Source: a virus | Virus record (IMG/VR): IMGVR_UViG_3300045988_138661 | Length of the DNA stretch: 64,000 nt | Direction: 5' to 3' (one strand) | Part shown: piece after piece, positions 1 through 56,110 of the stretch | Layout: each line of letters opens with the position of its first letter | Position numbering within the stretch: position 1 is the stretch's first letter | Translations under genes and position numbers: made by a program | Notes under the pieces: model-generated | What the model was told of the DNA's origin: nothing | The model's database searches: none | The model's input: only the letters and a program-made list of their open reading frames with translations

Positions 1-200
1 GTGCCTTGGAAACCAGAACCATTATTACCCCAGCCATTACCGCCCCAACCATTGAAGCAGAATAAGAACAGGATAATAATCCACCATGCTCCGTCTCCCC
101 ACATTCCGCCATCATTATTACGATAGCCATTTCCAGAAGCCGCAGCAATATCAGATAATGAATAATTCGGCGTGCTCATTGGATAATTGTAATTAAACAT
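1..200 (-). CDS. Partial small Gly/Asn/Trp-rich protein with a hydrophobic segment. N-terminal 67 aa visible (MFNYNYPMSTPNYSLSDIAAASGNGYRNNDGGMWGDGAWWIIILFLFCFNGWGGNGWGNNGSGFQG); runs off the window.
   Basis: ATG at 200-198 preceded by SD (gaaagaggttttgttATG). No stop before the window edge. Confidence 0.4.
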   Translation of the reverse strand, partial: MFNYNYPMSTPNYSLSDIAAASGNGYRNNDGGMWGDGAWWIIILFLFCFNGWGGNGWGNNGSGFQG

Positions 201-226
201 AACAAAACCTCTTTCTATAATTTTAT

Positions 227-475
227 TTATTTAAACCCCATTTGGGACTTAAAACTATTGAACTCTTTATCGAAATTCAACCCTCTTGATTCAAACAAAT
301 TACGAGCAAATTTTTCAATGTCATCGGATTGACCGTTCCGTGCCATTCGTAATAAATTATTGCCCATTGGCGTTCCGCCCATTTGATTTTCAAGCATAGA
401 TAAAACTAATTGCTATGGATTTTGACCGTTTTTAATCATAGCAATAATTTGCATTGGATTCATTGATTGTGTCAT
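227..475 (-). CDS. Hypothetical protein, 82 aa (MTQSMNPMQIIAMIKNGQNP-TAG-QLVLSMLENQMGG...), with one in-frame TAG.
   Basis: Hand translation: SD ggagagcttcaaATG, in-frame TAG (plus-strand CTA at 413-415), TAA stop at 229-227. Missed by the ORF track because of the TAG. Confidence 0.5.
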
Positions 476-487
476 TTGAAGCTCTCC

Positions 488-934
488 TTAAAAATTAAAC
501 TGCGGTTTGCTCTCTGCTGGTTGCTATGGAGTTGGCTAATCCGTTCCTTGAGATGGCGCAACCGCGTTATTGGATCCCATGATCTATGCAAATACTTCTT
601 TAATAGAAGTTAAGGTAGTATTAAATTCTTCTCGTGTTATATAGTCATTATTAGGCTAAGAAGAATTTGGGATTTCCTTTAATTCATACATATTGATAGA
701 AGCTGTTCCATCCATATTTATTTGTTTTGTATAAATTCTACGATTAGCATAGTCAGGAAAATAAAAAACTGAACCATCAAAATCTATATTCATAGCTCGA
801 ACCTCTTCTAAAGAAGCAACGGGTCTAATTCGCTATGCAGTACTGTTTTGAATCATAGGTGTAGCAGTTGTTCCATAAATAGGTCTATTATTACCTATTG
901 GATACTACTGCTATGGATAACCATAAGTATTCAT
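488..934 (-). CDS. Hypothetical protein, about 148 aa, with several in-frame TAG.
   Basis: ATG 934-932 with SD (ctccggaggtaataacATG). Frame stays open through CTA triplets to a TAA at 490-488 that overlaps the SD of the next gene. Confidence 0.45.
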
Positions 935-1063
935 GTTATTACCTCCGGAGAAATATAATAATGAAAGGTTTTATCTTTTCCTTTCATTATTATATGACTT
1001 TTATTTTGTGTAAATATATTATAATTACTGACACTTTTTGGATAAAAATTTCACTTACTTAAA

Positions 1064-1125
1064 ATTAAATAAATTTGACACTTTATAATTTTTTATTTTA
1101 CAATATTTAAAAATTTTTGTATAAT
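1064..1125 (+). promoter_or_regulatory. AT-rich promoter region upstream of the LytTR gene (TTGACA-N17-TTACAAT; repeated TGACACTTT motif).
   Basis: ttgacactttataattttttattttacaat, with a second tgtataattataat downstream. Confidence 0.3.
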
Positions 1126-1177
1126 TATAATATAGAAAGAATATAAAGATAGAAAAATTTTTTCTAAAATAAACAAA

Positions 1178-1894
1178 ATGAAGGTGATTAAAATTTTTAT
1201 CGTAGGTATTTGCGACAATAGCGATTAGCAAAATGACTCATTGGAAGAAATAATAAATCAGTATTTTAAAGAATTTAATTTGCCGGGATATATATATAAA
1301 TTTACTGATCCTGGAAAATTAATTGATTCTAATATTGATTATGATGCAATCTTTTTAGGAATTACATTCAAAAACATGGATGGCATTGAAATAGCTCATC
1401 TTTTAAGAACAAATGGGTATATTGGAAAAATAATTTTTGTTTCCTCCCAAATAAATTATGGAGTAGCTTCTTATGAAGTAAAGGCATTTAATTTCGTCAA
1501 AAAACCTGTTAATAAAGAAAAAATTTTTTCTATTTTACATGAAGTTAGAGAAGGAAAAAGACGTGAATATAAATATTTAGATACTCCTAACGGAGAAGTA
1601 AAAATTGATTTAAATAAAGTATTATATGCTGATATCCAAAAACGAAATTTATGTTGTCATTTAGAAAATGAGGTTCTAAATAGTAAAACTTTAAAAACTT
1701 CTTTTGAAAATTATATAGGAACTTTAGTTTATCATCCAGATTTTGTCTTTATCCCACCAAGTTTAATTATTAATTTAAATCAAATTAAAATAATGAATAA
1801 AGACAATTTAACTTTTAGAAATGGTGAAATTTTATACTTTCCTAAAAAAGGTTATGAAGAAATTAATCGACGATGGAAAAATCCATTTAGATAA
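1178..1894 (+). CDS. LytTR-family DNA-binding regulator with a degenerate receiver domain (FLGITF in place of FLDI). The long form starts at ATG 1178 and reads through one in-frame TAG at 1226-1228; the alternative TTG start at 1241 gives 217 aa.
   Basis: C-terminal LytTR-like segment (YADIQKRNLCCHLENEVLNSKTLKTSFENYIGTLVYHPDFVFIPPSLIINLNQI). Upstream in-frame MKVIKIFIVGICDNSD-TAG-QNDSLEE resembles receiver beta1/alpha1. TAA at 1892-1894. Confidence 0.6.
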
Positions 1895-1895
1895 A

Positions 1896-1937
1896 AAAAA
1901 ATAAGGGAGACATTCAATTAAGAATGTCTCCCTTATT
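1896..1937. terminator. Bidirectional intrinsic terminator between the LytTR gene and the leftward genes.
   Basis: aaaaaaaataagggagacattcaattaagaatgtctcccttatttttatt: 13-bp stem flanked by A and T runs. Confidence 0.6.
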
Positions 1938-2034
1938 TTTATTACTTTAAATCATCATTTGGAGTACGATAATTATTTACTGTAGATTCAATCTTTTCTT
2001 GTAAATATTTATTTAAATCGCCAAAAGCATTATT

Positions 2035-2349
2035 TAAATATTCTTTAGCGTCATCGCTTAAAATAAGCAATACCGCTTGATAAGTTCTCTAAAATGCTTC
2101 TTTTTGAGCAGCTTCATCAAACTTGCCTTGTTCTTTAAGAGAATTTACATAAGTTTGATTAGTGGCAATAACACAGTTAGTAATTGTGTCAGTAGCCATT
2201 TGCACATATTTATTTAAAATATCATTGTCAGTTTTCTTTTGTAGTTCTGCACTTTTTGCTTTAATCCAAATAACTATAAAAGTAGTTAAAGCACCAAGCA
2301 TAGGAATCAAGCACACTTGAAATAATTGATTAATCAAATTTTGATCCAT
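2035..2349 (-). CDS. Small membrane protein, holin-like (N-terminal TM helix LFQVCLIPMLGALTTFIVIWI, charged C-terminus), about 104 aa with one TAG.
   Basis: The ORF-track piece 2089..2349 ends at TAG (2089-2091). The frame continues to TAA at 2037-2035. SD aggagataatattATG. Confidence 0.45.
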
Positions 2350-5889: not shown

Positions 5890-6090
5890 TTAAACCTCAT
5901 ACCATTCTTTTAATTCATTTTCAGGAACTAAAGGAGAGATGGAAAAGAATTCTTTTCCATCTCTTGTTAATTTTTTATTGTAATCTGCTATTAATCTATA
6001 TAAAGTAGTTGCAGGAATTCCTGTTAATTGAATAGAAGATTCAATAATACCATTAGAACCCATATATCTATAAACAATTTCTTTTTCCAT
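5890..6090 (-). CDS. Hypothetical protein, 66 aa, TAG-free.
   Basis: ORF track. SD gaggacaaattATG. Real TAA stop at 5892-5890. Confidence 0.55.
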   Translation of the reverse strand: MEKEIVYRYMGSNGIIESSIQLTGIPATTLYRLIADYNKKLTRDGKEFFSISPLVPENELKEWYEV

Positions 6091-6099: not shown

Positions 6100-9000
6100 T
6101 CACTTTACAATAGGCTCTTCTTCAAAATTCGCTCTATTGGATATCATTGCTTCATAAATATTATGTAAAGTATTTTTAACACTTTCACCATAACTAGCCA
6201 CATAATAATATCTAAAACGACCTGTGTATCCATTAGCAACAGTAGGCATACCAGTTTGACGAGGAGTAAAAATATTACCAGAACTATCTGCTGTAATTTG
6301 TTTAATTGGGTGTTTATTAGTACCAATCTATACTTGGATAGCACCAGTATAACCTTTAAACTAATTACCAGACATATTTAAAATTGTCTGGCCAGAAAAT
6401 GCATTTATATCAAAATTAAGAATACCGTCTTTGCATCCCTCTATAATTAAATTATAAGGAGAATAAGAACCCATCTTACTTTGATAAAATGCTTGAGCTC
6501 CAAAAGTCAAACCTTCAGTAGAAGAAGAATAAGGAATTATGTTATTACGGCTTAAAGGACATTGATAAAATGCTTTAGTGCCAATTTTCTTTAAACAATC
6601 ACTAAATTGGAAATATTCTAATCCGCTATCTAAAATAAAGGCATAATCATCTATTACAGAAATTTTATTACTATCTTTTGGAGCAAAGAATATAGCAGTA
6701 ATATTAGGATTTACCTGAATACCAACTGCTGCTGAGGGGTTAACTTGACTATATTTAATTCTTGTAATTGGCTAACCATTATAAGTTGTAGGTAAAGTAA
6801 TTTTGCCTTTTAAATTCTTAGCTAAGTCAGTCATTGCAAATGATAATTCTCCATCAGAGTTTATAATATCATAATATTTATGAGTAGCATCATTAGTTAA
6901 AATATTATCATAAACACTAATCGGCTCTCCAACAGCATAAAATTCGCGGTCAGCATAGGCTAGTTGTTTAGTTAAATCAATTTTAACTCCATCCTTATCC
7001 GCCCATCCCGTCTATCTCCAAGTCCACTCTAATGGGTCTTCGCCTTCTGGTAAATCAGATACTTCTGTATTATTAAAATAATAGAATTCTTTTGGAACAG
7101 TAATTTTTTCACCATAATTAAATACTTTCTTTACAGTTGAATCATTAATAATGCGGTCACCATTAACGAAAGTGATCGTATAAGATTTACGCTCAAATCT
7201 CGCTTTAAAAATATAATCCATTTTATTAGGTTGTAAAGACAAAGAATTCCAATCGCTTTTTAAAACAACGTCTTCTTCATTTACATTTTTTCCAACAGTA
7301 ATTACTAATTCTCCCGTATCATCTTCCCAACCTTTAAAATCATAAGTTGGCATTTTTTCTTGTAAGCTACCAAAAGAAATATAAGTTTCACTAGAAGAAT
7401 TTGTTGGATCATCAAAGAATTCACTGCTAGATAAGGGTAATTTCTAAGTTTTTAGAACCTCCTAAATTAACACTCCATCAATATCTTCTTTTTCTAAAAT
7501 AAACTTGGCAGAACATTCTTGTTTAACGTTTTCTACAAAAATTATTAAATCAGGGTATTTATTCTATAACTCAGTCTAGATAATAGATTCATCAATCTAA
7601 TTATTATTTTTTATATACATAACACCAGATATTTCTGGCTTATTAGTATTAAGACCCCTATAATTATTATAAATATCAATTAATAAATTATAATCAGTTA
7701 TTATACTATGATTATTATTGTCTCCATTTATTGTATCTAAATAATAAATCTGATTATTTTTAATATCAGATTTTGTTATTTTATTAACCTAATCTTTTGG
7801 AATAGCTACCAACTAAAAATGTCCATTATCTCTATAATAAGATTTTCTTTCTGGATCAAGAGTTGTTTTAGTGTCAGTCAGAAGTCTATATGGACTCCAC
7901 TAAACATTATTTAAATTAATAATACAATTAGATAAATCTAATTTACTATTTTTACTAGCTGAAATATATTTGCGTAATAATTTATAACTATTATAGCCTA
8001 AATTGCCACCTCGAATATCAAAAGTTCTTATCTCAGTTTTTTCTTTTCCTTCTTCAGCATCGGTAAGACCTTGAATATATAAACCACGATTTTCATCTAA
8101 AATCTCAAGTTTTCCAGTAATCGGATTTTTTTTAGGATATACATAATTAGTTATTAATTTCGTTAATAAATTAGCTTCTATTAAACTTAAATAATTTGTT
8201 CGATTAGTTAAATATAAAGTATTTAAAGCTACTCCAGGAGCGAAATTAACTCTCGGAATATTAGATTTAGTATTTCTAAAGTTTTCAAGTTTTTCACTTT
8301 TAGTTAAATCTAATGCACCCTAGTCTTTTTTAAAGTTAATATTACAAAGATTCATTTCTTTAAGTAAAGGCATTCCACCTTTTGGGAAGGACCAGTCATT
8401 TACATCATTATTAAAATATTCATTACCGCTTTCATCTTTTCCATCATATCCTAATAATAAATCAGTTAAACGCTCCATTTTTCCTTCAGCTGCAAACTCT
8501 TGGAAATATAATTTACTTAAATCACCAAGGGATTTCATTTGATCCATTCCATAAATATAATATAATTGTTCTTTATAATTACCGCTACTCATAATTCCTT
8601 TTTTAATATCAGGAGCTACATATTTAACCGGTTCTAAACCATTATATTTTTTTGAAGGAAAATTTTCTCCATCTGTACCAATAGTAACATAGGCATTACG
8701 CGCGGGTTCCATGTTGATCCAATATTCACCATCAAACATATGATTTTTTTCTTCGAATTCAGCACCATTTTTCCAATACTGAGAATTTGTAATTAATCCT
8801 TCCATATTTTGAGTGTTAGTACCTTCAATCCATTTATCTGATGTATTCTTAGGATTGTTCGCGGAAATACGACTTCTAATATAGCTTCCTCCACCGTTTC
8901 TGGCATAAGTGCCAACAGTCAACCAAGAGTCAATGTAATTAAGACGATTAGCTAAAAATTGCGCGCGATAAAGATTTCTATCTCCTTGCAAAGCATAAAA

Positions 9001-12000
9001 ATATTTATCATCTTCAACCTCATATGAACCTCCATCAGTTAAACGGCCAAATACTGGCATATTTTCAGCTTTAGAATTTGTTGGAATAATATATTTAAAT
9101 TCTTCATCTAAGCTTAAAGCAATAATTGGTCGATCTCCTAAAGCGGCATAACTATCAAGAAATACTGATGGATCAGTACGATACCATTTATCTACAATAT
9201 CGCTCTTTTTAGCCCCTGCTCCTGCGCCTTTAGTAAAAATTTTATTTACTCTTGAATCATTTGGGCTATAAGAATTATTTTGAGTTCCCATTAATTGCTT
9301 ATATTTATCTACCATTTTATTCTTAAAGAAAGTATAAAAATTATTCCAAAGAACACTATCATTAGTCGAAAAACTTCCTTCTTCAGTAGCATCAATATAA
9401 TATTCAAAAGATGGGATACCGGTATTATTAATACCTAGTTGAGTATCAATATCATAAAAGATAGGATACCAAATATAATGCTATTTACCGGTAGATTTTT
9501 GAACATTGCCTTTTTGCGGACCCCAAGAAGCAAACATTGCATTTTTTCCACGAGAATCATAACATTCAAAAATTTCCGTCATCAAAAGATAAGAAGCCAA
9601 ATATTCGATATCAAAGAAATTACTTAATTCATTTTTAAATTTAGCTTGACGGTATTCTTTACTATCTTTAGTATAAGTAATAGAATCATAAGTTACTGGT
9701 TTAGGCAATCTCCATCTTTCATCAATAAGATCTTCATTTTTAACAAAAGAATAATAATCTAAAGAAGAATTAAATTTATCAGAACTTAATACATAAATTT
9801 CATTTTTACTATCAACTAAAAGGTAGTAAGTATTTGTTTTATATACTTTACTCAAATCATTTGTAAGTTTTATACTTATATAATTTACTTTATTATTTTC
9901 ATTAATCTATTTATAATACCTTAATTCAGGATTATAATCTTCAGAAGCTAATTTATAAATAATTTTTCCATCTTTATTAACCCCATCTTCGATGTAATAT
10001 TCATTAGGGGTGTATATAGCTGCTGCAAGTCCTTCAACTTTAGTATAAGTACCCATAGATTGAAGCTCTAATTTCTATCCATCCTCAAACTCAATCTTAC
10101 CACAATCTAAACAGGTACTCCATACCCAACTAACTGCATCTTCCCAGTTAGACATTAAAGCTAAGAGCAATTCTTGTTTACTTGTATTATTACCAACATT
10201 AAATTCTATTTCTTCTCCATCTGGATTTTTTATAATCCATTTAATAGATTTTACACCAGTAATTTCATCAATTATTTCTTTTTTAATAAGCCTATCAGGA
10301 GCTACATTTTTTAATTCTTCTCCAACAATCTTAGTCTATGTTCCATCTGGGTCATCCCAGTCTTTTAAATTAAATAACTATTCAGCAATTAAATCATCAT
10401 TTGGATTATATCTTGGTTCAAAAGAATCAACAACTTTTGGAGCGCCTTTAACTAATTCAGGATTATCTCCATCTGGAGGAATTACCATATTAGGATTCCT
10501 AAATGATAATTTATAACGATTCCAAGGGTCGCGGAAAGAACAATATGTTCTTGAATTATTCTAAAATTCCCAACATTCAGCAATATCTCTTACTTTTGGA
10601 GTTCCATTAATTTGATTCTATAAAACCTTTTTATCAGGCTTAAATCCATAGCATTCATCTGACCCTTTGTCTAATAGCATATTATATTTACCAATAAAAA
10701 TACAATTACTGCTATTTTCTTTAGAATATGTATTATCATCATTAGACATATAATGGAAAGCTAAAACTGGGAATCCTTTCACTGAAGTACGATAATCTTC
10801 TAAATTTCCATATAAATTATAATTATCAAAAGAATCTTTATAATCTTCTACGGGATGTTTAGAATAAATTTCATTAACTAAATTAGCAAACCCTCTATTA
10901 TAATCTCCTGAAGATTCCATAAAATCTATTTTTAAAGTAAACTTAGTAGTACCAACTGTTTTATTATCCATATAAAACCATTCTAAATAACAAGGATGTT
11001 TAGTTATATCTTCATTATACTAATCTCCTGCTTTTTTATAAGCCTCAGCAAATGGGCCTCTATTTAAAAGCATTGATTTTTTACATTTAGCCTTATAATT
11101 ACGACGAGGATAAAATTGTGAAGAAGTGCCTTGGACTTGAAAAGTACATCCATTAAGAACAGTTATAAAACTAGGGCAATGATGTATATAATAATTCTAT
11201 ACAGCAGTATATTTTATTGTTTCTATCCCAGTCTCTTTATTTTTTTCAATTACAGGTTTCCATCCTTCTTTTATAGCAACTTTTTCTAATTCGCCACTAT
11301 TATAAGCAGCATCTAAAGCCGTATTAACAAATTCTAAAGTTCCTTCCTAACTTCCTTTTGCTTTAGAATAAGGTAATCTATTATCTGTGTTGTTTTTATT
11401 ATTTTTAGTAGTTCTTAAAATAATATAAGGCATTAAAGGATCAGTAGGATGATTATCATTATACTTTTTCATTTTAGTATAAGAGAATACATCATCTTTT
11501 AATACCGTGTTATTCTCGTAAAGGTCTTTTTGATCCCATTGTTTTATACTTCTTTTATCAAAAGCATAATTTTGGACTATTTCAGGAATAGTTAAATCTG
11601 TATCATAAACTCTAATACTATAAATATCAATATCACAAGTATTAGACATAAATTTAATGGAATCAGAATCAATATTCCAAACATCACTATTACAACGTAC
11701 AACACTAGTTAAAACGCCATTCATAAAAATTTCTAATAATTTAGAATTTCCGCCTTCTATATCGCTTTTCTTTTTAGTATAAACAAATGAAAGATTTAGC
11801 ATTTCATTTTCAATAAAATCAACTGAAACTGTTTCTTGAGCGCCATTAGCCGTAAATACAGCATCCTATGGACTAAAATAAATACCAGGAGAAACGGAAC
11901 TTCCTAATTTACCATACACACAAACTAAATTCTTTAAATTAAAATCTTGTTCTATTTTATTATACTCTAAATCATCATAACTATAATTAGTTGTCGGTAA

Positions 12001-13716
12001 ATATTCTTTAATTAAAAACTCATCATAATTAAGATATTTATTTTGAGCTTTAAATTTATCCCAAGCATCATCATCTTCCCAATTATCTTTACTTACTTTA
12101 TATCTAGTATATTTAGTTATAACTTTAGCATAATTTTGAGGATTTTTTATTTTAAATTGAACCTCAATAGTAGCAGATGATGATCCATCTTTAAAAGCCA
12201 TTTTCCCAATTGGGATAGACACCTCGGCACCATTACTTACTCGCAAACAAGTCGTATTGTTTTCATCGAAAATCCAGCCATTATTATACCAATTAAAATT
12301 TTTAAATTCTACGTATTTATTATTATTAATTAAATAAGTTTCACGACCTAATTTTCCCTCTGAGTTAGAACGACCAGTAGCTATAAAATTAACTTTTAAA
12401 TTATCTTTTTTTGCTAATTTCATATCTCTTAAAGGATCAATTAAAATTGTAAAATTAAAATTACGAGAATAAGAATAAGGATCAGTACCAACTTTAATAG
12501 TATAATAAGAACTATCATCTACAGTTAAATTAGTAATTTCCCAATATTGCCATTCTCTAACTTGTGAACTATCTAATTCTCTAGTTCCTACTTGGACGCC
12601 ATTCTTATAAAGAGTTATAAAAGCTCCATTATTATTTGGGTCTAATACTTTAAAAGGAATTCTTATTGTCTCATAAGTATAATATTCTGTCTTAAAATCT
12701 TGCACCCAAATTAAAGGCATTTTATTGCCTGGTTCTTGAATAACAATTTCCTTTTGAATAAAATCTGTTCCCGCGCCTTTTTTAGAATTATTCATTAAAT
12801 ATAACTTTGCTTTTATTATATGCTCACCATGAGTAAAATAATTTTTTAAAGTAGAAACTTTGTCAATCCCTAATATATTTGTATCAGGAGTAATAACAAA
12901 AGAATCTTCAGAAGAAGAATCAGTATCACTATAAGTTCTATCTAAAACTAAATAGTCATCAAAATAAACTTCAACAGATCTAGCGATATCTTCAGACATT
13001 AACCAGCTAACAGATATTTGTCCGTTATCAATTGGACTATCATTACTAAAACTACTTTCTTTCCAACTGAAAGAAAGATGGTGCTTATTAATATTAATAG
13101 TGTCAGAGTTTTTCTAAAATCTATTATTTTCTTCATCAGGATTATAATAAATGCTAAAATTAATCTCACTAGAACATGAATTTCTTAAAATATTAGTTAA
13201 ATCAATTTCTTGTGGAACATTATGTTCATAAGTAGTAGGAGGAGAAGTATAATATACTTCTTTTTCTGTAGCACTTTTAATTTCACTTATAGTTATAATT
13301 CCTTGCACAGAAGAAGATTGCGGAATACCACCAACAGTTCTACATTTAACCAAAACTTTTACTTTAACATTTTCTTCATTTAAGATATCAACAGGGCTGT
13401 CAGATGGAATTCTTGTTAAAGAAACAGTTCCTAAAACTTTTTGTTCAGAGTCTCCTTCTCCGCCACCGCCCGCCCCGGCGACAGTTAATTTTTCACATCT
13501 CGCACATTCTTCGCGGTTTTCATTTAAAGCAAAACCTAAAATTCGATAAAAACATCCATCTAAATTTAAAATTAAATCATCTATATGACAATTTGTTATA
13601 GATAATTTTGATAAAAGAATTAAATAAGCCACTGGGTTTTCATCCGCATCATATTCAATTTCCACAGTATTATCTGTACCGTAAATTACCTGAACACCAC
13701 TAGACCCTATTGGCAT
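6100..13716 (-). CDS. Giant structural protein of about 2538 aa (tail-associated or host-recognition candidate), read through about 40 or more in-frame TAG.
   Basis: ORFs 7012..7353, 8320..9315, 9481..9855, 10618..10971, 11347..11802, 11866..12999 and 13114..13716 share one frame. Each ends in CTA on the plus strand. The gaps 7354-8319, 9316-9480, 11803-11865 and 6103-6420 were hand-checked and contain no TAA or TGA. TAA lies immediately upstream of ATG 13716; TGA at 6102-6100. Remaining gaps were not checked, so this could be two or three genes. Confidence 0.4.
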
Positions 13717-13848
13717 TTTATTTTCAGTTGCTGTATCTAAATAAACTCGGCCTGTATCTGTTGCAACATAAAAATATCCATCGCTTTGAGGATATTCTTT
13801 TATTTTTTCTTCTGGGCCCTATACAGGACGAAAACGTATTTTAGACAT
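13717..13848 (-). CDS. Small protein, 43 aa (MSKIRFRPV-TAG-GPEEKIKEYPQSDGYFYVATDTGRVYLDTATENK).
   Basis: SD aaaggagtaaattATG. TAA at 13719-13717 directly abuts the next ATG (TAAATG). Confidence 0.35.
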
Positions 13849-13966: not shown

Positions 13967-15628
13967 TTAGAATGTTCCCCACTCTAGCTCAAAATTAACT
14001 TTAGCATCATCAGTCTTAGTTGCCGCGGAAACATTAACCTTTAGACTATTACTTGCGAAAACAAGCGGTTTACCTTCAAGAACAGCACCCGCAACTTTAA
14101 GATTAGGAATTAAAGTATTAGTACCATTTACCGTATAATCTGCATTAGCAATTTCTTGATGAGTATTTTTTACAGTAAAAGTTTTTTGAGTAGATTTAAT
14201 TACATGCCCTTGAGCATCAATTTCAGTTGGCTCATTAATAGTAATAGTTTGTTCATCAGCATAAGATTGAGAAACTGGATCATTTACAGTTAAAGTATTA
14301 CTATGTTTAATAGTAACAACTTTAGAATTAGTAGGTTGACCTTTTGAATCTGTTAAAACTTCTGTTTCTAAAACAATACCACTTTCACCATGAAGAGCAT
14401 AATCTAAAAGTTTTCTGGTAGACCCAAGTTTAATAATAAAACCAGCAGTACTATTATCATTGGCTCCTTCAATTTCAGTAACAGGATCATTAGCAGAAGG
14501 AACATAAGTCCAATTAATAGTACCAGTAATAACGCCATTAACCTCTTCCCCAGAAGCAATAATTAAATCACCAGGGCGTAAATAATGACCATTCCAAAGA
14601 GTATCTTCAGCTCCAGTATAAATAAAGGTATTACCTTCAGTAATTTCAGCAATATCAGAATTATCATAGGCAATAGCTCCATCTTTAACTTGGAATCCGC
14701 CACGGAATACCATAGCATTAATAGTTCTAAGTTGATTATCAATATCTTGCTTACTATAAACAGGAAGAGTTAAAACACCATCTTTAAATTTGTAGCTACC
14801 AGTTTTACCTTCTAAAGCAATTTCCGGATCAATATCAGCAGATAAAGTTGTATTATTACCAGCCCCTTGAACACCAGGACCACTAATAGAAGCAGTAAAA
14901 CCAGTACCAGTAGCATGATTAGCTACATCAATACTATCAACAGCTTTATTTACACTTAAAGTATAATTTCCAGTAGAAGTTTCAGCAATATTAACATTAC
15001 TACCGGCGGTAATATTAAAATTACCTGCACCAGTATCGCCATTATTTAAATTAACATTTAAAGTTTTTTCGTTTAAAGAAGAATTTAATTGATAATTAAT
15101 TCCTTTTAAACTCAATTTAACAGTGTCTACACCGTTATCACCAATAGCAGGAACTGCTTCAATTTGGATATAATCGCTACCTATAATATCATAAGTTTCA
15201 GTAATAATATTACCACTACTATCAGCAATAGTATTAGTTATAGAAGCTCCATTAGGTCTTTCAGGATTGTTATTTACTGATACATTACTATTCTCTTTTC
15301 TAGTATCTAAAACAGTATCAGTATTAGTTTGAATCCAATTTTTACCATTATTGATACATAAAATATTTTTATCTTTTATATAATAAAATTCGCCAGCAGT
15401 ATTTTGGTTAAAACTTTGAGGTAAATCTGCGGTAGTATCAACTACATTAATGCCTTGATTTACAGGGACGCAATTATTTTCATCTACACCATAATAAAGA
15501 CGGCTTGGTTTTTTATAGTCTTCGGCGGACTTATTGTCATTAATTACTAAATAAAACGCACCAGGTTTATATCTACCTGCCACCTTTTCAAATTCGGCTT
15601 GAGAGCCTTTTAAAAACTTAACGTTCAA
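13967..15628 (-). CDS. Tail fibre or receptor-binding protein, 553 aa, TAG-free. N-terminal KFLKGSQAEFEKVAGRYKPGAFYLV anchor motif common to phage fibre proteins.
   Basis: Intact ORF. SD aaaggagtgaaaaaaATG. TAA stop. Gly/Asn/Thr-rich repeats typical of fibres. Confidence 0.65.
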   Translation of the reverse strand: MNVKFLKGSQAEFEKVAGRYKPGAFYLVINDNKSAEDYKKPSRLYYGVDENNCVPVNQGINVVDTTADLPQSFNQNTAGEFYYIKDKNILCINNGKNWIQTNTDTVLDTRKENSNVSVNNNPERPNGASITNTIADSSGNIITETYDIIGSDYIQIEAVPAIGDNGVDTVKLSLKGINYQLNSSLNEKTLNVNLNNGDTGAGNFNITAGSNVNIAETSTGNYTLSVNKAVDSIDVANHATGTGFTASISGPGVQGAGNNTTLSADIDPEIALEGKTGSYKFKDGVLTLPVYSKQDIDNQLRTINAMVFRGGFQVKDGAIAYDNSDIAEITEGNTFIYTGAEDTLWNGHYLRPGDLIIASGEEVNGVITGTINWTYVPSANDPVTEIEGANDNSTAGFIIKLGSTRKLLDYALHGESGIVLETEVLTDSKGQPTNSKVVTIKHSNTLTVNDPVSQSYADEQTITINEPTEIDAQGHVIKSTQKTFTVKNTHQEIANADYTVNGTNTLIPNLKVAGAVLEGKPLVFASNSLKVNVSAATKTDDAKVNFELEWGTF

Positions 15629-27792: not shown

Positions 27793-27836
27793 AAAAAGGG
27801 TGAAGCCTATAAGACTTCACCCTTAATTTTATTTTC
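27793..27836 (-). terminator. Intrinsic terminator after the tape measure gene (agggtgaag cctataag acttcaccct plus T-run).
   Basis: 10-bp stem followed by 5 or more T on the minus strand. Confidence 0.6.
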
Positions 27837-30800
27837 TATTGGCATACTAAGAAGCTACATTAACTAATGTATTAAATGCTTCTTGAATTTCGTATCTATC
27901 AGTAGCGTTCGGGAAACTAGCTTCAATTCTAACATTCTGCTCTAATGTTCCATCTTGAGAATTAACAGTAAATCCAGAAGAAGAAAGAGTAGAGATTTGT
28001 TGACTATTGAAGTCTAATTGTTTTGCGATCTATCTAACTAATTGAATAGAAGCTAACATATTTTCCGTGTCATCAGCATTAAGAACTAATTCTTTCTAAT
28101 GTAAGAACGCTAATTTTCCATCATCATTCCAAGTGCCAGTATAACCACCACTTCTAAATCCAACTAATTGTTTCCAAACATTATCAGGAATATCAGTAAA
28201 ATGACTATAAGTTTTTCCATTATAACTAATCGGCAATGCTAATCCTTTACGATAAAAAGCATCAACACGGGCGGTAGTAGCAGCTTCAACGTCATATCCT
28301 CCCCTAATAACGTCTTCACGATTCTAATAATATTCATTATATTTGTCAGAACCATATTCAACTTGACCCATTTTTTCAGACCAATCAACTCTTGTTAAAG
28401 AATTACTACTTCCACTACCAAATCCGCTCTAAGCGCGCAATGTTGCTTGAATAGCGTTCAAAAGCTCTTCATAAGCTCTAATAGTATCAAGTAATTGCTG
28501 ACGATGTTGTGCCCAAGCTTCAGTAGCACTACGAACGGAACTTAACTCGTTTTCAAGAGCAGGAATAACTCTATTAGATACTTCTTGATAAAGTTTATTA
28601 CTTTCATCAGTAACATCTTTAACTTTCTATTGAGTGTCTTTTAAATCATCCCCAACAATTTTACTAATTTCATCCATACTATCTTGCCATTCTTTAAATG
28701 TATCATTGATAATATTAGTATTTTCAGTAATAGTGTCTTTCCAACTATTACTGTTATCTTTGATAATATCAAAAGAATTTACCCAAGCATCTTGAACTAC
28801 TCTACTGTCTTCTTCTTGCGCTTTCGCATAAAGATTTCCAGCAGTAGTAATTAAATCAGTATATTGTTGAATTACTAATGCGCGTTCTTGCTGATATGTA
28901 GTCTCGCGGTAAACGGCATCTTCCGCGGCTTTCTAATCAAGTTCCGCAAGCTTTTCAGCCAACTCTTTCTCATATTGAAGTTTTTGTTGACCATATTTAT
29001 TTGTCGCATCAAGGCGAATATTATATAAGTCATTTTCCGCGTCTGCCAAAGCCTATTGCGCGTCATTTACTTTCTCTTGGTCTGCGGTATACACATAACC
29101 AAAATTACCCTCATTATCACGTTGCAGTCTAACTGTAGACTTTGCGTTTTGAGCTTCCTCTAATGCAATTTGTGCTTCAAGCACTTTATATTTAGCCTAA
29201 GCAATTTCTAATTCTAATTGACTTAATTTATCTTTATCTCTTAACTACTCAATTTCTTTAGTAAATTGCTGGTATCTATTTTTAGCTGCTTGATTATTTG
29301 TCTTATCAATAGCCTAATTAACATTATTAAGTAGTTTATTCATTTCATAAATCTAATTAGTCTTTGTTAAATATTCATCTTGATAAGAAGACATTCTATC
29401 CAAAGCATCATTTAAAGCATCCCAACCAGAAATATTAAAGTTATTACCATTAATACTCACTTTAGTAGTGCTCAATTGCTTATTCATTTCATCCGCAGCT
29501 TGTTCCATCTTTGTAGTAAGAATTTCTTTTAATGCTTCACCATATTCTTCCGCTTTAGAAAGCATATCCTCTTCCGCTTCATCGAACGCGGCTAATATAG
29601 CATCATAATTCTTTTGAAGCACTTCACGCTCAGCCTCATCAGTTGAACTGGCTAAAGCCGCGGCCGCTGCATCACGTTCACGTTTCAAACTTTCATACCA
29701 TTGTTTAGAAGCATCAAAATTATTTTTCTTAGTCTAAGCAGTTCCATTTAAAACTGATAAAACTTTATCATAATCTTTATCTTTACCTAACAAAGTAATA
29801 ATAGAACGATAATGATCCAATACACTAGTCAAATGCTCCATATGATCTGTATATTTAGATAATTCATCATTTGCTAAATCTATAGTATTACCATAATATT
29901 CAAGCATTTCTTTATCTAAATCCTATAAAGCATTTAAATTATCTAATGTATTATCATATACATCTTGTAAGCCTTCAATATAATTTTCTTGAGAAATTTC
30001 TCCATTAGAATAAGCATTATTTAACTGACCATAGAAATTTTCGTAAGTTCCTAACTGACTAATTACTGGATCAAATTGACCTTGTAAATATCCAAGAGCT
30101 TCAGCAGCTTTATAAATATTATCACTTAATTTATCAAAATAATATTCTAATTTCTTAGTATCATTTTCATCTAATTGGACTTTTACTTCAACTTCATAAG
30201 TAAGCATTTGATAATTTTTATCTTGCCACTCATTTATTTTATCTTGAATATTATCAGTTAATTCTTCGACTAAATCTCTTGTATCTTCATATTGACTAAT
30301 GGCGTCTTTTAACTCATCAATTTTCTTTTGAATCGGATCTAAAGTTGCTTCTTTATAAGCATCTTGAGCGTCTTTTGTAGAAAAAGAATTTGCTTTATCC
30401 TAAGCGGCTACAAGCTAATTATAAAGTTTAGTCATCTAATCAGTATAATTAGAAATATCACCATCTTCATCAAATGTGAAAGTAATTCCAGCTTTTTTCG
30501 CAGCTTGCTATAAAGTAGCTTTATCTGTCTTTAAATAAGCCTAAGCTTCTTTTTGCTTTTGTTTTAATAAATCAACTTCCTTAAGAGTTAATTTATTACT
30601 TTTAGCCATTGCATCAAGATGAGCTTTGCCCCAAAGCCTATCGGCAGATTTATTAGCTTTATCTAAAGCACGAGTAGTATCATTGATGCTATCAGTTATT
30701 TCTTTATATCTATCAACGACATCAGATTTTTTAGATTTATCAATTTTAGAAGGCTTAGAAGAAGAAGAACCACCACTTGATTTGCTTCCTCCTCCTGACC

Positions 30801-33800
30801 CTCCAGAATTAGTAGAAGAATGATTGTTCGAACTGCCGGTAGCTTTTCGATGAAATCCCTAAATTTTAGGAGGAGTTTTTCCGCCGCTAAAAGATACTAA
30901 ACGCATACCGCCAGGAGATTTTGTAGGTTCCTCAGCTTTTGTTTCTGTTATTGTTGAAATTGAAGGTAAATTAATAGTATGTTTACCTAAGAATCCAAGA
31001 TCAAAAGTTTTAGGATTGTCAGCCTTAATATCTACTACGCGAGTAATAGTTTCAGCATTTGGCATTTCCGCAGAGGTATCAATATCTTCTGCGTTATAGA
31101 CTGGTTCATAGCCAATTCCTGCAAAATAAGCATTAGCTTCATCTGCAGTCATCTAAGATTCCTTAACTAAGTTATTAGCTGCTTCTAAGAAATCAGCATC
31201 ATCAACTTTTGCTCCAATCTCAATGGTCGGATCAAGTTTAGAGCAAGCATCTTTAACTTTCTAGTCTAAAGAATTTATCTAAGCAGTAAATTCTTCATCT
31301 TGTCCTAAAGTGATTCTAGCAATAATCTCTTCATCCATTGAATTTCTTAAAGAATCAATAGCTTTTTCATCGCCTTTAGCTGCTTTAGCAATTTCATCTA
31401 AATGGCTAGTAACAAAATCATCTGAAATAAACTCTTCTTCAACATCAAGGACATCAGATAAAGCAGAACGGGTTTTAGTTAAAGCATTAAAATATTCTTG
31501 ACTGCCCTTAGTACTATTCTTTAAAATATCATTCCAAGTTTCAAAATTACCTGATAAAGTTTCTACTCCTTTATTCATTCGAGTAATCTAAACTGCTAAA
31601 CGGGCAGCTGCGTTAGCATTCTAAGAAACACTATCATCAAATTCTGATGAATTTTTAGATACTTCAAGAATATAAGAAGCATAATCTTTCATAGACTAAA
31701 CTTCATCATCACTTAGTCCCATTTCTTTACCGGCATTAGTAAAGAAATCAGACATACTATTTAATTCTCCGATAGCATTTAACTCTTTAAGACCATCTTT
31801 AAATTCATCAATGGTTACCTATCCATTAGCTAATTGCTATACTAATCTTTGATAAGCTTCGCTTTGTTTGTCTATATATTTAATACTTTCACTAAAATTC
31901 TATAAATCTTCTTCAGAAGTACCATAGGCTTTAACGATTTTATTAAAATACTTAGTACCTAATTCTGTATCACCAAAAGATTCTTGTAAGCTTCTCTAAA
32001 AACTATCTAAATAATTTAATTGATTTAAATCTAAATTACTTAAATCTATACCGTTTAAAGATTTCTGCAAAGTATTCTATAAAGCTGTAGTAAATTTTTC
32101 AGCTACTTCAGGAGAAGAATAAGCTTCTGCTAACTAACTATAAAATTGATCTGCACTAACTTTTAATTCTTCATCATCGACTTTCAAAATCATATTACCA
32201 TTACGCTAAGCAACATAAGATACATCTTCATATCCTTGCTATTTAAGTAACTAAATATAATCTTGAATTTCTTGCTCATTACCACTATAATTTATATGTT
32301 TATTCCATTTAAAATCTTTCTATAATTTAGATTTCTAATCTGCAACAGTTTGACTATAAATATCTTCTCCATTAAATAAGTCATTTATTTCATCAGCAGT
32401 CCTATCACTTCCAAGAGCTGAAAATTCCGCTTCCAATAAATTATTATATAATAATTTTCCCTATTCTTTTAAAGAAGAATTTTTAATTATCTAATCTTTA
32501 TTTTCTAAAATAAATTGATAAAAAGCTTCAGCAGTCTCATCACTAATAGCTCCAATACTAGTTCCAGTGGCATCTACTATAGCAGTTAATAACTCTCTTG
32601 CTCCTTCTTTAGTATATAACATATTACCAAAGTTAGGATTATCAGCAGCATTCTAAATCATTTCACTTATACCTGCTTTAGTAAGAATACTTTTACTTGA
32701 CACTAAATCAATAATATTCTAAATACCCTAATCACTATCTTTAAATTGATTATAACTATTAGTAATTTGCTAATCATTTACCGCAATCTAGTCTCTTATT
32801 TTTGTCGCAGTAAAAATTTTAAGATTTTCTTTTTGAGATTCTCCTAAATATTTTCGCCCTTCATCACTAATATCCATAGCTCCATTTTCATCAATGCTGA
32901 CGTATTTAGATAACTCAGGATATTTCTCTAATAATTTAGTAATTTCAGCATTAACATCAGAAATGGCTTTATACCATTCAATTGTGCCAGGAACTAAATC
33001 ACCAATTGTATCTTTATAAGACTATAATTTTTCTAATGCTGAGTTAGTTTCATCAATATTATTATTTAATTTATCAAAAGCTTCAGAACTCGCTTTTGCA
33101 TTCTCTTCTAACTTTTTTAATTTTGCTTCTGGAGTGCTTTCCTGCATTTTTTTAAATCCAATAGCAATTAAAGTTACAGCTCCCGCTAAAGCAATAAAAG
33201 CTCCAGCCGCAATAAGCGCAGTTGCGGCAACTAAACTTATACCCATTTTTGCTGCTAATAAAGCTGCCGTCTAAATTAATAAACTATTAGCAAATTTTGT
33301 TGACGCAAGAGCAGCCTAAATCTCTGCTAAAGTCATCTCTTTAGTAATAACTATTTTGCCTTTTCCCGCTGCAGTATTAGCATTTATAGCAATAGTTTCA
33401 AGTAATGTCTATGCTGTTGATTTTAATTGAGCAGCAGTTTTCTTTAATTCTGCTTGTTTAAATTGATTTACAGCAGAAGTTAAAGAAACTAAAGCCATAC
33501 TTAAAGACATAGTAATAGATAATAGTTTATCTCCAATACTCATATCTTCATCTTGTAAGGTATCAATAGCTCCTTTTAAAGACATTAACCCCATTGATAA
33601 AGAAGAAAGGGCTGTAAAACTCTAAGTAATTGATTTACCAAAATCATTTAAAGCACTTTGATATCCGCTAATAGCACTTTTTATCTCGACAAACTAATTA
33701 CGTAATCCTTCGTGACCTTTTTTTACAATTTCAATTTTTTCTTTTAATTTTAATAGAGTATTTCCTAAAGCTTCAGCCAAATCGTCAAATTCTTTAGCAG

Positions 33801-36083
33801 CTTTACCAGTTATTCCAAACTATTCTTTTAAAAATTGTACTCGAGCACTTATTTCAATCGCAGTATCAGATAATAAATCCCCCGCATTTACATTTTCTAA
33901 CTTTTCGAATTCTTCTCTAAAAGCTTTGACATCTAATTCTCCATTTTCAAAACGAGCTGATAAATTTCTCACTGCTTTAGCGGATTCTGTTAAATGTACC
34001 TAATCTAATGCTTTAGCTAATATTTCAAACTCAGCATGAAGCTCGGTAGATCTATTTTTTAAAATCCCAATTTTTTCATTAATGGTATTTAAAGCAGCCG
34101 CTCCTTGGTATCCTGTATCTACGACACCATTTAAACTTTGTCTTATTTGTGAATAACTTTTTAAATTATTTTCTATACTACCATTTTTAGAATCATTTCT
34201 TATAATTGATCTTAAATCAGTATTAATGCTCTATAACTCTTCAGTTACCTAGTCTTTAGCCTAAGCCGCCTTAATAACCTAATCTCCATAAGCCTAATTA
34301 ATTTTAATTAAATTTTCTAACTATTCTCTTTCTTGTGAAGTTATATCACCAGAAATTTTCTAAATTTCTTTTTTTAATTCTAAAGTATATTTTAATTGTT
34401 CACCAGAAACAGCATCTGCTTCAGTAACATTATCAAAAGCCATATTAGATGCTCTAGTATAAGCTTCTTCTTTCATCTACTCAGCAGAGCGTTTAGTGTA
34501 TCCTACCAAAGACTATATACCAAATCCAACATTACTTAATCCCTAAGCGATTTGCTTATTAAAAACTTTGGTAAATATAATTCCAACAGCAGCAATTACT
34601 CCTGGTAAGCCACCCATACTTTCTATTAAATCATTTATTTTATCTAAAACGTCGGCTAATAAATCGTTTAATGTAATAAAAAATTTATCATTAATCAGCT
34701 CAGCATAGACGCTCTATGCAGCTGCTTTTACTCTGTTACTAGCAGCTTCCCAAGATTCCGCATAAATATCAGCTTGTTTTTGAAGAGATCCATCAGCACT
34801 CTATGCTCTAGCAAGATTTTCTTTATAATAATCAAAATGGTCCATCAAAGCAATTAATTGAGTATATTGACGGACACCCGCAACCTATTGTGCTAAAGCC
34901 ACTTGCTAATCTTTATTAATACTCTGCCATTTATTACCCATTTCTTCGATGATGTTATCCATATCTTTTAATTCACCATTAGAATCTTTGATATTAATTC
35001 CAACTTTTTCAAGAGCCTATGAGTATTGATTTAATGTAGTACCATCTTCTAAAGTTTCGCCAAGCTTCAAGCCTTGAATACGAGCAAAGATAGTTTTTAA
35101 AGCTGTACCTACGACATCTTCACTTTGACGAGTAGTAGCAGTAATAGTAGCTAACGCGGCAGCTGCGTTATCAAAGCTTAAACCAATAGTATCAGCGACA
35201 GCGGCGAATTTTTCAAGACCGCCAGCAATTTCGTCAGAGCTAGATGCGGTATCTACACCTAAGCGCACCATCGCATCAGCGTAATGCTCTAATGATTGAC
35301 TTCCATCATAAAAGTTATTCCAAACAGCAGTCATCTGATCTGAAACTATTTCAGCACTTTCACGAGCTACATTTGCCATTTTAATAGTAATATCAGTGCG
35401 TTCTTTTACCTATTCATCATTTAAACCCTATTGATAATAAATTAAAGCAGCGTCAGTATATTCAGTAGTAGTTGTGCTTAAAGTTCTGGCCGCGATATTT
35501 GCCTATTTAGCAAATTTAGCCATCTAATCAGAGCTCTAACCTGTAACAATACGGATATTATTTAAAGATTTATTTAAATCTTGAGCGTATCCATAAGCAG
35601 TCTAAACTGCTCCCATAAAACTATGAATTGCACTTGAAGAAATCTGCCAACGAACTGTATTCTTCATAACAGTCCACATTTCAGATACTAAAGCACTTGT
35701 TCTTTTTAATGGAACGTCAGCCTCAATAATAGATTGAGATAAAGTCATAAAGGCCTTTTGGCCTTCTGGTCCTAATTCCATTAAATTACTCTATAATTTT
35801 TCTAAGTTTAAATTACTCTATCTTAAAGACTAAGAGAACTTAGTCAAATCCATTTTCCCAGTTTTTATATTTACCGTTTGAGATAAAATAGTCTATAACT
35901 TAGAAGCGGCTATTTGTGCTTCCGTCAATTCTTTTGTTATAGGTAATTTTTGAGTTTGAACTTCATTTATTGAAGACTTCAATAAATTATCTAACTAAAA
36001 TTGCAAATCTCTAATTTGATTCTAAGCTGATTTAGCATCAGTAGTAAATTGTAAATTAACCTAATAACTATTTAATTGTTTAG
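27829..36083 (-). CDS. Tail tape measure protein of about 2751 aa, coiled-coil rich, with dozens of in-frame TAG.
   Basis: All ORF fragments between 29353 and 35379 share one frame and each is bounded by CTA (checked at 33022 and 33409). SD gagaaaggagatttctATG at 36083. TAA at 27831-27829. The size and position after the chaperone genes match a tape measure protein. Confidence 0.6.
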
Positions 36084-36209
36084 CCATAGAAATCTCCTTT
36101 CTCTCCAAGTTTTATCTTTATATAAAAATAAAACGGGGATAAGAGCAATTATACTCTTATCCCCATCACTCTATTATTTTTCAAAAAATAATATTATTAA
36201 CTAATTTAA

Positions 36210-38084: not shown

Positions 38085-39068
38085 TTAGCCTCCAATAGCA
38101 ATGGTGCTATTAGCAGCGGTCTTTCTACGAATATCGTTGTCAACAGTTTCGTCTTCTTCAATAATCTGAATAGCAGCCAAAACTTTCTTACTATGATCGA
38201 AACGAGTATAATCAGGGAATGCGTCCATAGTAAAAGTGAAAGTGGAAGGATCACCAGAAGAAGCCATTGTAAAGTTAAAGTTGGATTGAATCTTGCAGTT
38301 AGGAATAATAAATTCAGCAGGCATATCTACGCCGTCTTGATTGCGGAATAAGGTAGAAGCTTCAAGATAGTAGTTACCACCGAACTTATCAGCAGTAATT
38401 TCAATCTGCTTAGCGCCAGATTCACGCTCAGTATAATAATCAACCATTACGGAGTCGCATTTAGCATAATCATTCTCTAAATCGTTAGTGGTATAAGCCA
38501 CTCCACTAGCACGATCAAATCCTTTTACGGTAATACTAAAACCAGTCTCTCCCGTAGTAACTCCTTCATGCGCCAGATAAGGCTCAGAAATAATTTCGCC
38601 ATCTTTCATAAAGAAAACATAAACATAATCGTCATCTTTATGCTCATTATCAAGATAAGGGGCATAAGAAACAGGAACGATTAGTCCATCAGTCTTAATG
38701 TTTTTTCCAGCGTTAGCAGGGACAATGTCTTTAGTCTTATCAACAGTTTGAGTAATATGTTGCTTAATCTTATTATCAGCAGAAGCCTCAACAAGACCAG
38801 CACCGGAAAGAATCATGAAACCTTCAGGAGAAATAAGAGCATCTTCCATTGTGAAGGTAACAGTACGCTCGCCTTCCCATGCGACTAAGTTAGTATTACC
38901 ACGACCACCTTGTGCGTATACGGTGGTAGCAGCGCCTTCCATACTGGAAGTCTTTAAAGTGTCGAAATAAATAACTGGCTCATTCTTATAAAATTGCTTA
39001 TTACCAATCTTTTGATTAGCCTTTGCCTTTAAAACGACATCGCAAATTTCGCGTACACCAAATTTCAT
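38085..39068 (-). CDS. Putative major tail protein, 327 aa, TAG-free.
   Basis: Strong SD ggaggaaaaaaacctATG. No TAG in a TAG-dense region. Followed by a small gene and a strong terminator. Confidence 0.45.
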   Translation of the reverse strand: MKFGVREICDVVLKAKANQKIGNKQFYKNEPVIYFDTLKTSSMEGAATTVYAQGGRGNTNLVAWEGERTVTFTMEDALISPEGFMILSGAGLVEASADNKIKQHITQTVDKTKDIVPANAGKNIKTDGLIVPVSYAPYLDNEHKDDDYVYVFFMKDGEIISEPYLAHEGVTTGETGFSITVKGFDRASGVAYTTNDLENDYAKCDSVMVDYYTERESGAKQIEITADKFGGNYYLEASTLFRNQDGVDMPAEFIIPNCKIQSNFNFTMASSGDPSTFTFTMDAFPDYTRFDHSKKVLAAIQIIEEDETVDNDIRRKTAANSTIAIGG

Positions 39069-42946: not shown

Positions 42947-42974
42947 TATTCAATTTCTCCTTTTACTCATAAAA

Positions 42975-43020: not shown

Positions 43021-43032
43021 ATTTATATTAAA

Positions 43033-44139: not shown

Positions 44140-44156
44140 TATCCTTTTCTCCTTTC

Positions 44157-56104: not shown

Positions 56105-56110
56105 ACAGAT

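Follow-up and report, generated by a model that had tools for sequence, protein, structure and literature searches.

Why does the late arm of a phage carry, alone on its plus strand, a gene for a LytTR-type regulator whose reading frame passes through a TAG codon, and what would the product of such a gene control? The question is raised by REG, the regulator gene near the left end of a viral DNA of 64,000 nucleotides (IMG/VR virus record IMGVR_UViG_3300045988_138661), which was analyzed over its whole length and is called the window here. The initial annotation had singled out REG as the only plus-strand gene of the left arm, and it does stand alone on that strand between positions 1 and 52754. 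The best explanation overall, which we favor on balance, is that REG encodes an orphan phage LytTR factor with a pseudo-receiver, that its TAG is read as Gln, and that it would activate the divergent operon headed by the gene p148.

The product of REG is, with high probability, a receiver plus LytTR protein of the AgrA/ComE/LytR type. Its receiver domain matches the Pfam family PF00072 at 35.4 bits (cutoff 30.2), whereas its LytTR domain matches PF04397 at 19.2 bits, under the gathering cutoff of 22.6. The latter match covers nearly the full profile (about positions 4-97 of 98), as does that of P0001 (20.6 bits), an ortholog 95% identical to REG along its full length. Structure and profile matches to ComE and AgrA indicate that the LytTR (AgrA-like) architecture had been called correctly despite this score. 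A HMMER search with P0001 returned 7424 homologs, which typically have about 240 amino acids and align over query residues 9-235. Among 60 aligned homologs, 56 match Response_reg and 39 match LytTR at E ≤ 0.001 (best 1.6e-15), and the family profile built from these 60 sequences matches full-length ComE (4cbv) with an E-value of 3e-18. The AlphaFold model of REG, built on the homolog alignment, has a pLDDT of 95 and a pTM of 0.81; residues 7-128 are predicted to form a (beta-alpha)5 receiver and residues 131-234 an all-beta domain, the latter made of ten beta strands (131-220) with terminal helices at pLDDT >90. The top Foldseek match of this model is full-length ComE (E-value 8e-14). The LytTR domain of AgrA (4g4k) superimposes on the C-terminal half with a TM-score of 0.78 and a root-mean-square deviation of 2.6 Å, and receiver (REC) structures superimpose on the N-terminal domain with TM-scores of 0.8-0.9. 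PHROG 8810, a family of unknown function, matches residues 8-234 (E-value 1.3e-25), while NCBIfam ranks LytR, BtsR, and AgrA highest at about one tenth of their equivalog cutoffs (LytR, 35.8 vs 375 bits). Finally, the near-invariant LytTR residues R156, F176, F189, N199, and W233 are all retained.

The receiver of REG is a degenerate pseudo-receiver. Among the 60 homologs the consensus of this domain reads Asp-Asp ... Asp ... Thr ... Lys, and the residues of REG at these positions are Asp13, Asn14, Gly61, Ser89, and Lys109. The phospho-accepting Asp, present in 51 of the 60, is replaced by Gly61 (codon GGA, 1358-1360), in agreement with the earlier reading of the motif FLGI; in addition, the second acidic column, Asp in 47 of the 60, is occupied by Asn14, and the metal site is thus incomplete. 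Ser89 and Lys109 are kept. The Gly of FLGI is common to the four nearest relatives (P0001, P0002, P0005, and P0008). The acceptor varies within the clade of about 45% identity: L024 and P0005 have Gly where L025 and L131 have Asp, and all of them read Asp-Arg at the acidic pair. The most distant syntenic orthologs, L026/27/29, keep the Asp acceptor. The receiver half was less conserved than the LytTR half in every comparison made (79 vs 93%, 64 vs 74%, 40 vs 56%, and 19 vs 46%). No HATPase or HisKA kinase gene was found in the precomputed Pfam annotations within 10 kb on either side of REG in L001, a contig of 95% identity. Because the acceptor Asp and a complete acidic pocket are missing and no kinase lies nearby, we file REG as a pseudo-receiver LytTR transcription factor rather than as a response regulator. 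From these sequence features we infer that DNA binding is the selected function of REG and that phosphorylation is not used; the phosphorylation independence that had been proposed for the protein is very probably right.

The late arm of this phage reads TAG as Gln (code 15). Under the standard code, its longest open reading frame (ORF) has 556 amino acids; with TAG as sense, ORFs of 2761 and 2584 amino acids appear and the coding length of the arm doubles. The identity of the inserted residue follows from diverged orthologs, in which Gln stands opposite TAG codons of the window in 26 of about 75 non-TAG pairings, well above the Gln background of 2.7%. TAG accounts for 242 of the 697 Gln codons of the late arm (35%), is present in 24 of its 31 genes, and terminates none of them. 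In-frame TAGs in many late genes, long ORFs only with TAG as sense, and the alignment with Gln together place this phage among the recoded phages of code 15. Neither the window (64 kb) nor 2 Mb of sequence from related loci (18 loci, then all 133) yielded a suppressor tRNA(CTA); these sequences redundantly cover just two neighborhoods of a genome roughly three window lengths long (~160-200 kb). The window and the related loci likewise yielded no other code-change gene, and only a single tRNA-Gln(TTG) turned up.

Two candidate starts of REG, ATG-1178 (238 amino acids) and ATT-1193 (233 amino acids), both lie upstream of the TAG. Start codons were compared by a codon-by-codon alignment anchored on Asp13. 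In L026/27/29, AAGGAGG is followed by an ATG seven codons ahead of the Asp. The same position is occupied by ATT in the window, L019, and L002, and by ATA in L024/25 (around 5990-6010 of these loci), where TAA TGA stops lie directly upstream and no canonical start precedes the TAG. The initiator Met falls in the ATT-1193 column for 45 of the 60 homologs. ATG-1178 overlaps the Shine-Dalgarno-like element, has no Shine-Dalgarno sequence of its own, and is not conserved (TTG in L019, TGG in L002). This comparison suggests that the regulator likely starts at a non-AUG codon in L024/25 and that a non-AUG start at ATT-1193 is possible in the window.

What REG might control is suggested by its genomic setting. 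It is carried by 23 IMG/VR loci, and in intact copies down to 31% REG identity the order is HExxH87-p181-p140-TM293-p82-p148 on the minus strand, REG on the plus strand, and holin-fiber-p206-p503 on the minus strand. One lineage (L128/L129; 34-36% guanine plus cytosine, GC) has no REG. There, p148 directly follows the tail-fiber gene, p82 is fused to the N-terminus of TM293 (375 amino acids; L128 6618-7745, L129 3051-4178), and the holin is encoded at a different site, adjacent to a serine recombinase (L128 4205-4807). The unit of holin, terminator, and regulator therefore interrupts a conserved late operon in the lineage of the window, and p148 consequently needs its own promoter. Two independent natural deletions, in L018 (from p181 through ~1238, junction ~6011) and L028 (window-equivalent ~121-1739, junction ~6026), each take p82, p148, the control region, and the 5' part of REG together. 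This joint loss, and the convergent-divergent arrangement of p148, REG, and holin that holds in every relative bearing REG, lead us to consider the p148 operon as the target.

The control region between p148 and REG (935-1177) contains a candidate operator. The p148 promoter has a conserved -10 hexamer, and neither a -35 consensus nor a TG extension was found upstream of it. All lineages, including the one without REG, keep TTATATAAT-AATGRARGG on the p148-sense strand, that is, the -10, a short stem-loop, and a Shine-Dalgarno sequence. All six lineages bearing REG have a box of the pattern [G/A/C]ACAC(N)TTTTT (box 1) at a distance of exactly 34 bp from CAT..TATAT, the conserved p148 -10 element, and the 34 bases in between are unconserved. 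The lineage without REG presents unrelated sequence at this position. Since box 1 sits at this fixed distance only where REG is present, these sequences suggest that REG activates the divergent p148 operon. The initial annotation had pointed to this region for LytTR direct repeats, and a candidate second box of the CACTT type (box 2) follows 20-21 bp from box 1, although the repeat pattern is not significant by itself. The boxes would be located about 12 bp upstream of the expected p148 -35 position. In LytTR-controlled promoters, 11-13 bp lie between the direct repeats, which precede the -35 by 4-11 bp (PMC6193735), and a dimer of AgrA binds such repeats directly upstream of P2 and P3 (PMC4227749); by analogy, the spacing and position of the boxes appear to fit this geometry. 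The third box does not keep its geometry in L024.

Several other elements were identified in this region. The promoter-like site of REG has a -10 with an upstream TG that is conserved in relatives. The inverted repeat overlapping the p148 -10 folds with a free energy (ΔG) of -17.5 (z -4.5), which is significant in the window only, and the stem persists in relatives with altered arms (GAAAGG/CCTTTC, GGAAGAA/TTCTTC, and GAAGGGAAT/ATTCC..); it could be a 5' leader stem-loop that stabilizes the mRNA or a repressor operator. The p148 element TATAATAATGAAAGG was considered as a general late-promoter motif and rejected: it occurs once in the window, upstream of p148. An Rfam scan of positions 1-2500 returned nothing credible.

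The target and mechanism that we propose for REG are plausible, and we put them forward tentatively. Its product would work without phosphorylation by a kinase and would bind box 1 and box 2 in dimeric form; these would be direct half-sites whose starts are 20-21 bp apart and which lie just upstream of the -35 position of a promoter that has a -10 only. Binding would activate the operon p148-p82-TM293-p140-p181-HExxH87, which the terminator downstream of REG would cut off from the tail-fiber/holin transcript; REG may also feed back on its own promoter. As for other TAG-containing late genes, completion of the protein would have to await active TAG suppression in the host during infection. A more elaborate version is rather unlikely in our view: REG as the dedicated activator of a six-gene late membrane/accessory operon detached from the tail-fiber/holin transcript, throttled in translation by a non-AUG (AUU/AUA) start and an early TAG, and forming a code-switch-coupled transcriptional relay from the altered genetic code to late or lysis-associated genes in a widespread family of TAG-recoded gut phages of ~160-200 kb.

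Several observations weigh against the proposed activation of the p148 operon and the reading of which it is a part. Regarding the boxes, the comparison with genomes lacking REG comprises one lineage and two loci, and box 2, though well kept in L002, L019, and the window, has only a loose counterpart in distant lineages. The arrangement CACTT-N14-18-CACTT was found twice in the window against 0.55 expected, and it is not significant alone because 11 of 100 shuffled sequences do likewise. Moreover, the boxes read CACTT on the REG strand and are thus inverted relative to the p148 promoter, box 3 overlaps the -35-like TTGACA, and the conserved REG promoter is close at hand; the boxes could belong to REG's own promoter or be RNA polymerase elements. 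The sub-threshold PF04397 score counts against the LytTR assignment, and no suppressor tRNA turned up in the parts of the genome covered. Finally, REG is damaged in three of 18 close relatives, namely the two deletion variants and L022, which has a frameshift (~6426). This indicates that the module is dispensable, and all of these REG-deficient variants come from one metagenome (IMG 3300045988). The sequence TGACACTTT, allowing one mismatch, is weakly enriched and scattered in the window.

The alternatives concern what the TAG does and what the protein is for. Translation might start at TTG-1241, in which case the product would be a LytTR protein with a truncated receiver and the upstream frame would be non-coding. 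This codon opens the longest standard-code ORF (217 amino acids), the relative P0005 was called in this form (216 amino acids) by a standard-code gene finder, and the L018 deletion ends near it. The 21 codons upstream, however, encode strand beta1 (residues 7-12 in the AlphaFold model) and the acidic pocket; their translation is conserved in relatives as far as 45% identity and aligns with the 7424 full-length homologs. Starting at TTG-1241 would also remove the beginning of helix alpha1. No Shine-Dalgarno sequence precedes TTG-1241, and the additional TAGs of orthologs (two inside the receiver in L002, one at residue 28 in L011 and L023) all lie downstream of its equivalent and speak against the short form, which is extremely improbable. 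The loss of beta1, the missing ribosome-binding site, and the TAGs beyond the codon establish the long reading through the TAG as the real product, and the longer frame first proposed (MKVIKIFIV…) is confirmed as an ORF (1178-1894). The TAG itself could be a dedicated gate, REG being transcribed early and its protein made only with a suppressor, as a timer of late functions or lysis. The near-consensus sigma-70-type promoter (11/12) kept in relatives speaks for such a gate, and the TAG comes early (codon 12 or 17), ahead of the functional elements, and is conserved in all close relatives and in the 68% ortholog L002; recoding as a delay has already been proposed in print (bioRxiv 10.1101/2021.08.26.457843). 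This conservation is unremarkable because 11 of 49 window TAGs (22%) are kept as TAG in L002, in any gene. With one TAG among its six Gln codons, REG is below the mean of the late arm, and a gene containing 6-10 Gln codons has a better than 90% chance of including one TAG or more. Orthologs have one to six TAGs at differing sites: those of L024/25 lie elsewhere, the sole TAG of L026/27 lies late in the gene, in the LytTR domain, and the six of L029 are scattered. A dedicated gate is therefore unlikely, and the TAG in REG is an ordinary Gln codon and no special switch. The suggestion that full-length expression depends on suppression is correct insofar as REG cannot be completed without it, but this applies to most late genes, is a genome-wide trait already reported for recoded phages (bioRxiv 10.1101/2021.08.26.457843), and is not a feature of REG itself.

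Alternatively, REG could act on the host as a kinase-independent mimic of an Agr/Com/Blp/LytR-type regulator and rewire quorum-sensing, bacteriocin, competence, or autolysis genes. No cognate kinase lies within 10 kb of this orphan gene, its nearest named families are LytR, BtsR, and AgrA, other phages possess orphan LytTR regulators (PHROG 8810; Clostridioides difficile phage LIBA2945), and REG is accessory in that some relatives have deleted it. Yet the only genome matches are phage contigs binned into metagenome-assembled genomes (MAGs), and the box at a fixed distance in the gene's own control region, present only with REG, points to a phage target. We consider it improbable that REG acts in this way, by binding host promoters or poisoning host regulator dimers, although phage and host roles of REG are not mutually exclusive. 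It could also be argued that REG is a decaying passenger, a captured host response regulator without kinase or acceptor Asp that is drifting toward a pseudogene. Its receiver is degenerate, it evolves faster than its neighbors (31-46% identity where neighboring proteins retain 55-75%), and it is disrupted in L018, L022, and L028. Decay is nevertheless very unlikely given that lineages with as little as 31% identity still have an intact ORF in this place, that the promoter and ribosome-binding site are conserved, that the fold is predicted very confidently, and that the LytTR half retains every near-invariant residue and is better conserved than the receiver half. The orphan LytTR factor that would activate the p148 operon thus remains our preferred reading; the features of the locus are collected in Table 1.

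Table 1. Features of the REG locus and the two arms of the window (positions in the window; +, plus strand; -, minus strand).
Feature	Position	Strand	Description
Regulator gene (REG)	1178..1894	+	238 codons, ATG-1178 to TAA, TAG read as Gln; receiver-like and LytTR domains
Degenerate receiver domain	1193..1552	+	Pfam PF00072, alignment columns, REC structures (TM-score 0.8-0.9)
LytTR DNA-binding domain	1568..1879	+	Residues ~131-234; sub-threshold Pfam match over nearly the full profile, ComE/AgrA structural matches
In-frame TAG	1226-1228	+	Codon 17 from ATG-1178, Gln, N-terminus of helix alpha1
Shine-Dalgarno-like GAAGGTGAT and ATT codon	1180-1188; 1193-1195	+	GAAGG core 8 nt before ATT; candidate non-AUG start
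REG promoter-like site	1097..1125	+	TTTACA-17-TATAAT, 11/12; -10 with upstream TG
Box 1, GACACTTTTT	1030..1039	+	Candidate LytTR half-site
Box 2, TTCACTTAC	1050..1058	+	Candidate second half-site, 20-21 bp from box 1
Box 3, GACACTTTAT	1077..1086	+	Third CACTT copy; overlaps TTGACA -35-like hexamer (1075-1080)
p148 -10 hexamer TATAAT	989..994	-	Conserved
Perfect 16-nt inverted repeat, 11-nt loop	953..995		Overlaps p148 -10, abuts p148 Shine-Dalgarno sequence
p148	488..934	-	148 amino acids, 7 TAGs; heads the divergent late operon; phrog_21718 (unknown function)
p82	227..475	-	1 TAG; 82 amino acids
TM293 N-terminus	1..200	-	First 66 codons of a 293-amino acid transmembrane protein (phrog_16490), cut at window edge
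Bidirectional intrinsic terminator	1897..1940		Between REG and holin; ΔG -27.8 kcal/mol, z -9.6
Holin	1942..2349	-	1 TAG; convergent with REG; phrog_13712, E-value 4.7e-38
Late arm	1-52754	-	28% GC; 31 contiguous minus-strand genes in the TAG-as-sense gene map
Second arm	52755-64000	+	Small standard-code ORFs, 42-44% GC, starting from 52.9 kb

REG lies beside late and lysis genes, in partial agreement with the control module first proposed: the downstream neighbor is a holin and a divergent late operon lies upstream. The reading of that module as a lysis/lysogeny switch received no support. No endolysin was recognized among the neighbors. Of the three small TAG-containing genes originally described, p82 and p148 are small and carry TAGs, whereas the third is the start of the 293-residue transmembrane protein TM293, whose portion within the window has no TAG. 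The full protein, seen in L001 (8142-9023) and in all relatives, combines a transmembrane segment with a body rich in Asn and Gln and a tail rich in Cys; its N-terminus is what had been taken for a Gly/Asn/Trp-rich peptide. Further left in L001 are p140 (phrog_20016), p181, and an 87-amino acid HExxH protein (6826-7089) that ends the divergent operon. This protein presents weak matches to M78/ImmA-IrrE-like and SprT-like metallopeptidases and is kept in all lineages, including the one without REG. When the operon proteins were compared with Pfam, PHROGs, NCBIfam, and the sequences of the PDB, this weak metallopeptidase signal was the only hint of a function. Left of the HExxH gene, the plus strand encodes RuvC, dUTPase, NrdG, NrdD, guanylate kinase, and DnaE. 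No AgrB/AgrD-like, pheromone precursor, processing, or kinase gene was found with Pfam, PHROGs, and NCBIfam up to 10 kb to the left or right of REG, and the context to the left of the window, seen in L001, offers none over that distance. The idea of a peptide-signaling module is not supported: no Agr-type gene or kinase was found within this range, and the supposed peptides are conserved late proteins that also exist, in part as fusions, in the lineage without REG.

The phage belongs to a large family, in which the p351 gene is present in 481 IMG/VR loci with contigs up to ~200 kb. A megablast of window positions 1-25000 against GenBank phages gave no match, and tblastn with P0010 against phages returned only unannotated fecal contigs. 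The jump from 28% to 43% GC raised the suspicion of a chimeric window, which was ruled out because the GC-rich arm is syntenic in relatives; in L033-L049 it is syntenic yet mosaic, with blocks of 72-94% nucleotide identity. Two giant genes occupy the minus strand at 6100-13848 (2582 codons, 26 TAG) and 27829-36087 (2752 codons, 80 TAG). The seven late-arm genes without any TAG lie at 38085-39068, 39818-40399, 42353-45074, and 13967-14713. The TAG-free cluster at 42.3-45.1 kb has 36-38% GC and prefers CAG over CAA, unlike the remaining late arm, and the TAG-free late genes may encode the most highly expressed virion proteins. In the GC-rich arm, an AbrB/SpoVT-like ORF (MKATGIVRRIDDLGRVVIPKEIRRTL...) at 62078-62530, spotted by eye only, hints at a Firmicutes-type host. 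Two contigs of the family were deposited in MAG bins named "uncultured Mollicutes" (L130, a 164-kb contig) and "Clostridium sp." (L131); these labels probably reflect mis-binning and are unreliable as host assignments. A scan of genome contigs for a host or a kinase partner yielded only phage-like contigs in MAGs and L132, which encodes an unrelated canonical bacterial regulator and is unusable as an independent test of the 34-bp spacing.

These results bear on the timing of late and lysis programs in recoded phages, for which proposals have so far been confined to translational gating through the code switch. REG and its candidate operator offer a concrete and testable transcriptional layer in such phages, and REG is a clean natural example of a LytTR regulator that very probably dispenses with phosphorylation. 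They also show how standard-code gene callers truncate REG and its relatives (P0005 was called without beta1), and that in genome scans an in-frame TAG in a recoded genome is not a trait of the individual gene.

Compared with the LytTR response regulators (AgrA of Staphylococcus aureus, ComE of Streptococcus pneumoniae, LytR, and BtsR), REG shares the CheY-like receiver followed by an all-beta LytTR domain and the length of about 240 amino acids; its candidate repeats would have the ~21-bp period typical of the family. It differs by lacking the acceptor Asp and half of the acidic pair, by having no partner kinase or pheromone genes nearby, and by being encoded by a phage. Atypical response regulators that do not depend on phosphorylation, such as HP1043, ChxR, GlnR of actinomycetes, and RitR, keep the receiver fold with the phospho-acceptor and/or metal-binding residues replaced, and their activity is presumed to be constitutive or otherwise controlled. 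They mostly have OmpR- or NarL-type outputs and reside in cellular genomes, whereas REG has a LytTR output and is borne by a virus. The regulators of LytTR Regulatory Systems are not known to have a receiver domain, in contrast to the full pseudo-receiver of REG. These systems (HdrR/BrsR) are independent of kinases, have repeats near the -35, and often show positive autoregulation, and their regulator is co-transcribed with a dedicated transmembrane inhibitor (PMC6193735). Membrane proteins (the holin and TM293) are likewise encoded beside REG, but on the opposite strand.

Phage-borne orphan LytTR regulators are already known. The members of PHROG 8810 and the "two-component response regulator" of the Clostridioides phage LIBA2945 have the same architecture and no adjoining kinase. 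The LIBA2945 protein, however, has the canonical E-D...D...T...K receiver residues and is encoded among anti-repressor genes, whereas REG has a pseudo-receiver and belongs to a TAG-recoded phage, in which the holin and a late operon flank it. The code-15 gut phages of Borges et al. resemble the present one in reading TAG as Gln in the structural/lysis arm, with the other arm in the standard code, a low GC content, and a large genome. In those phages, recoding of late and lysis genes was proposed to delay late proteins, and a LytTR regulator is not mentioned in that work (bioRxiv 10.1101/2021.08.26.457843). Three points are new relative to these systems: a phage LytTR lineage has lost its phospho-site; REG has a fixed place, with the holin on one side and a conserved late operon on the other, in a recoded phage family that is widespread; and a candidate operator is set at a constant spacing from the divergent promoter.

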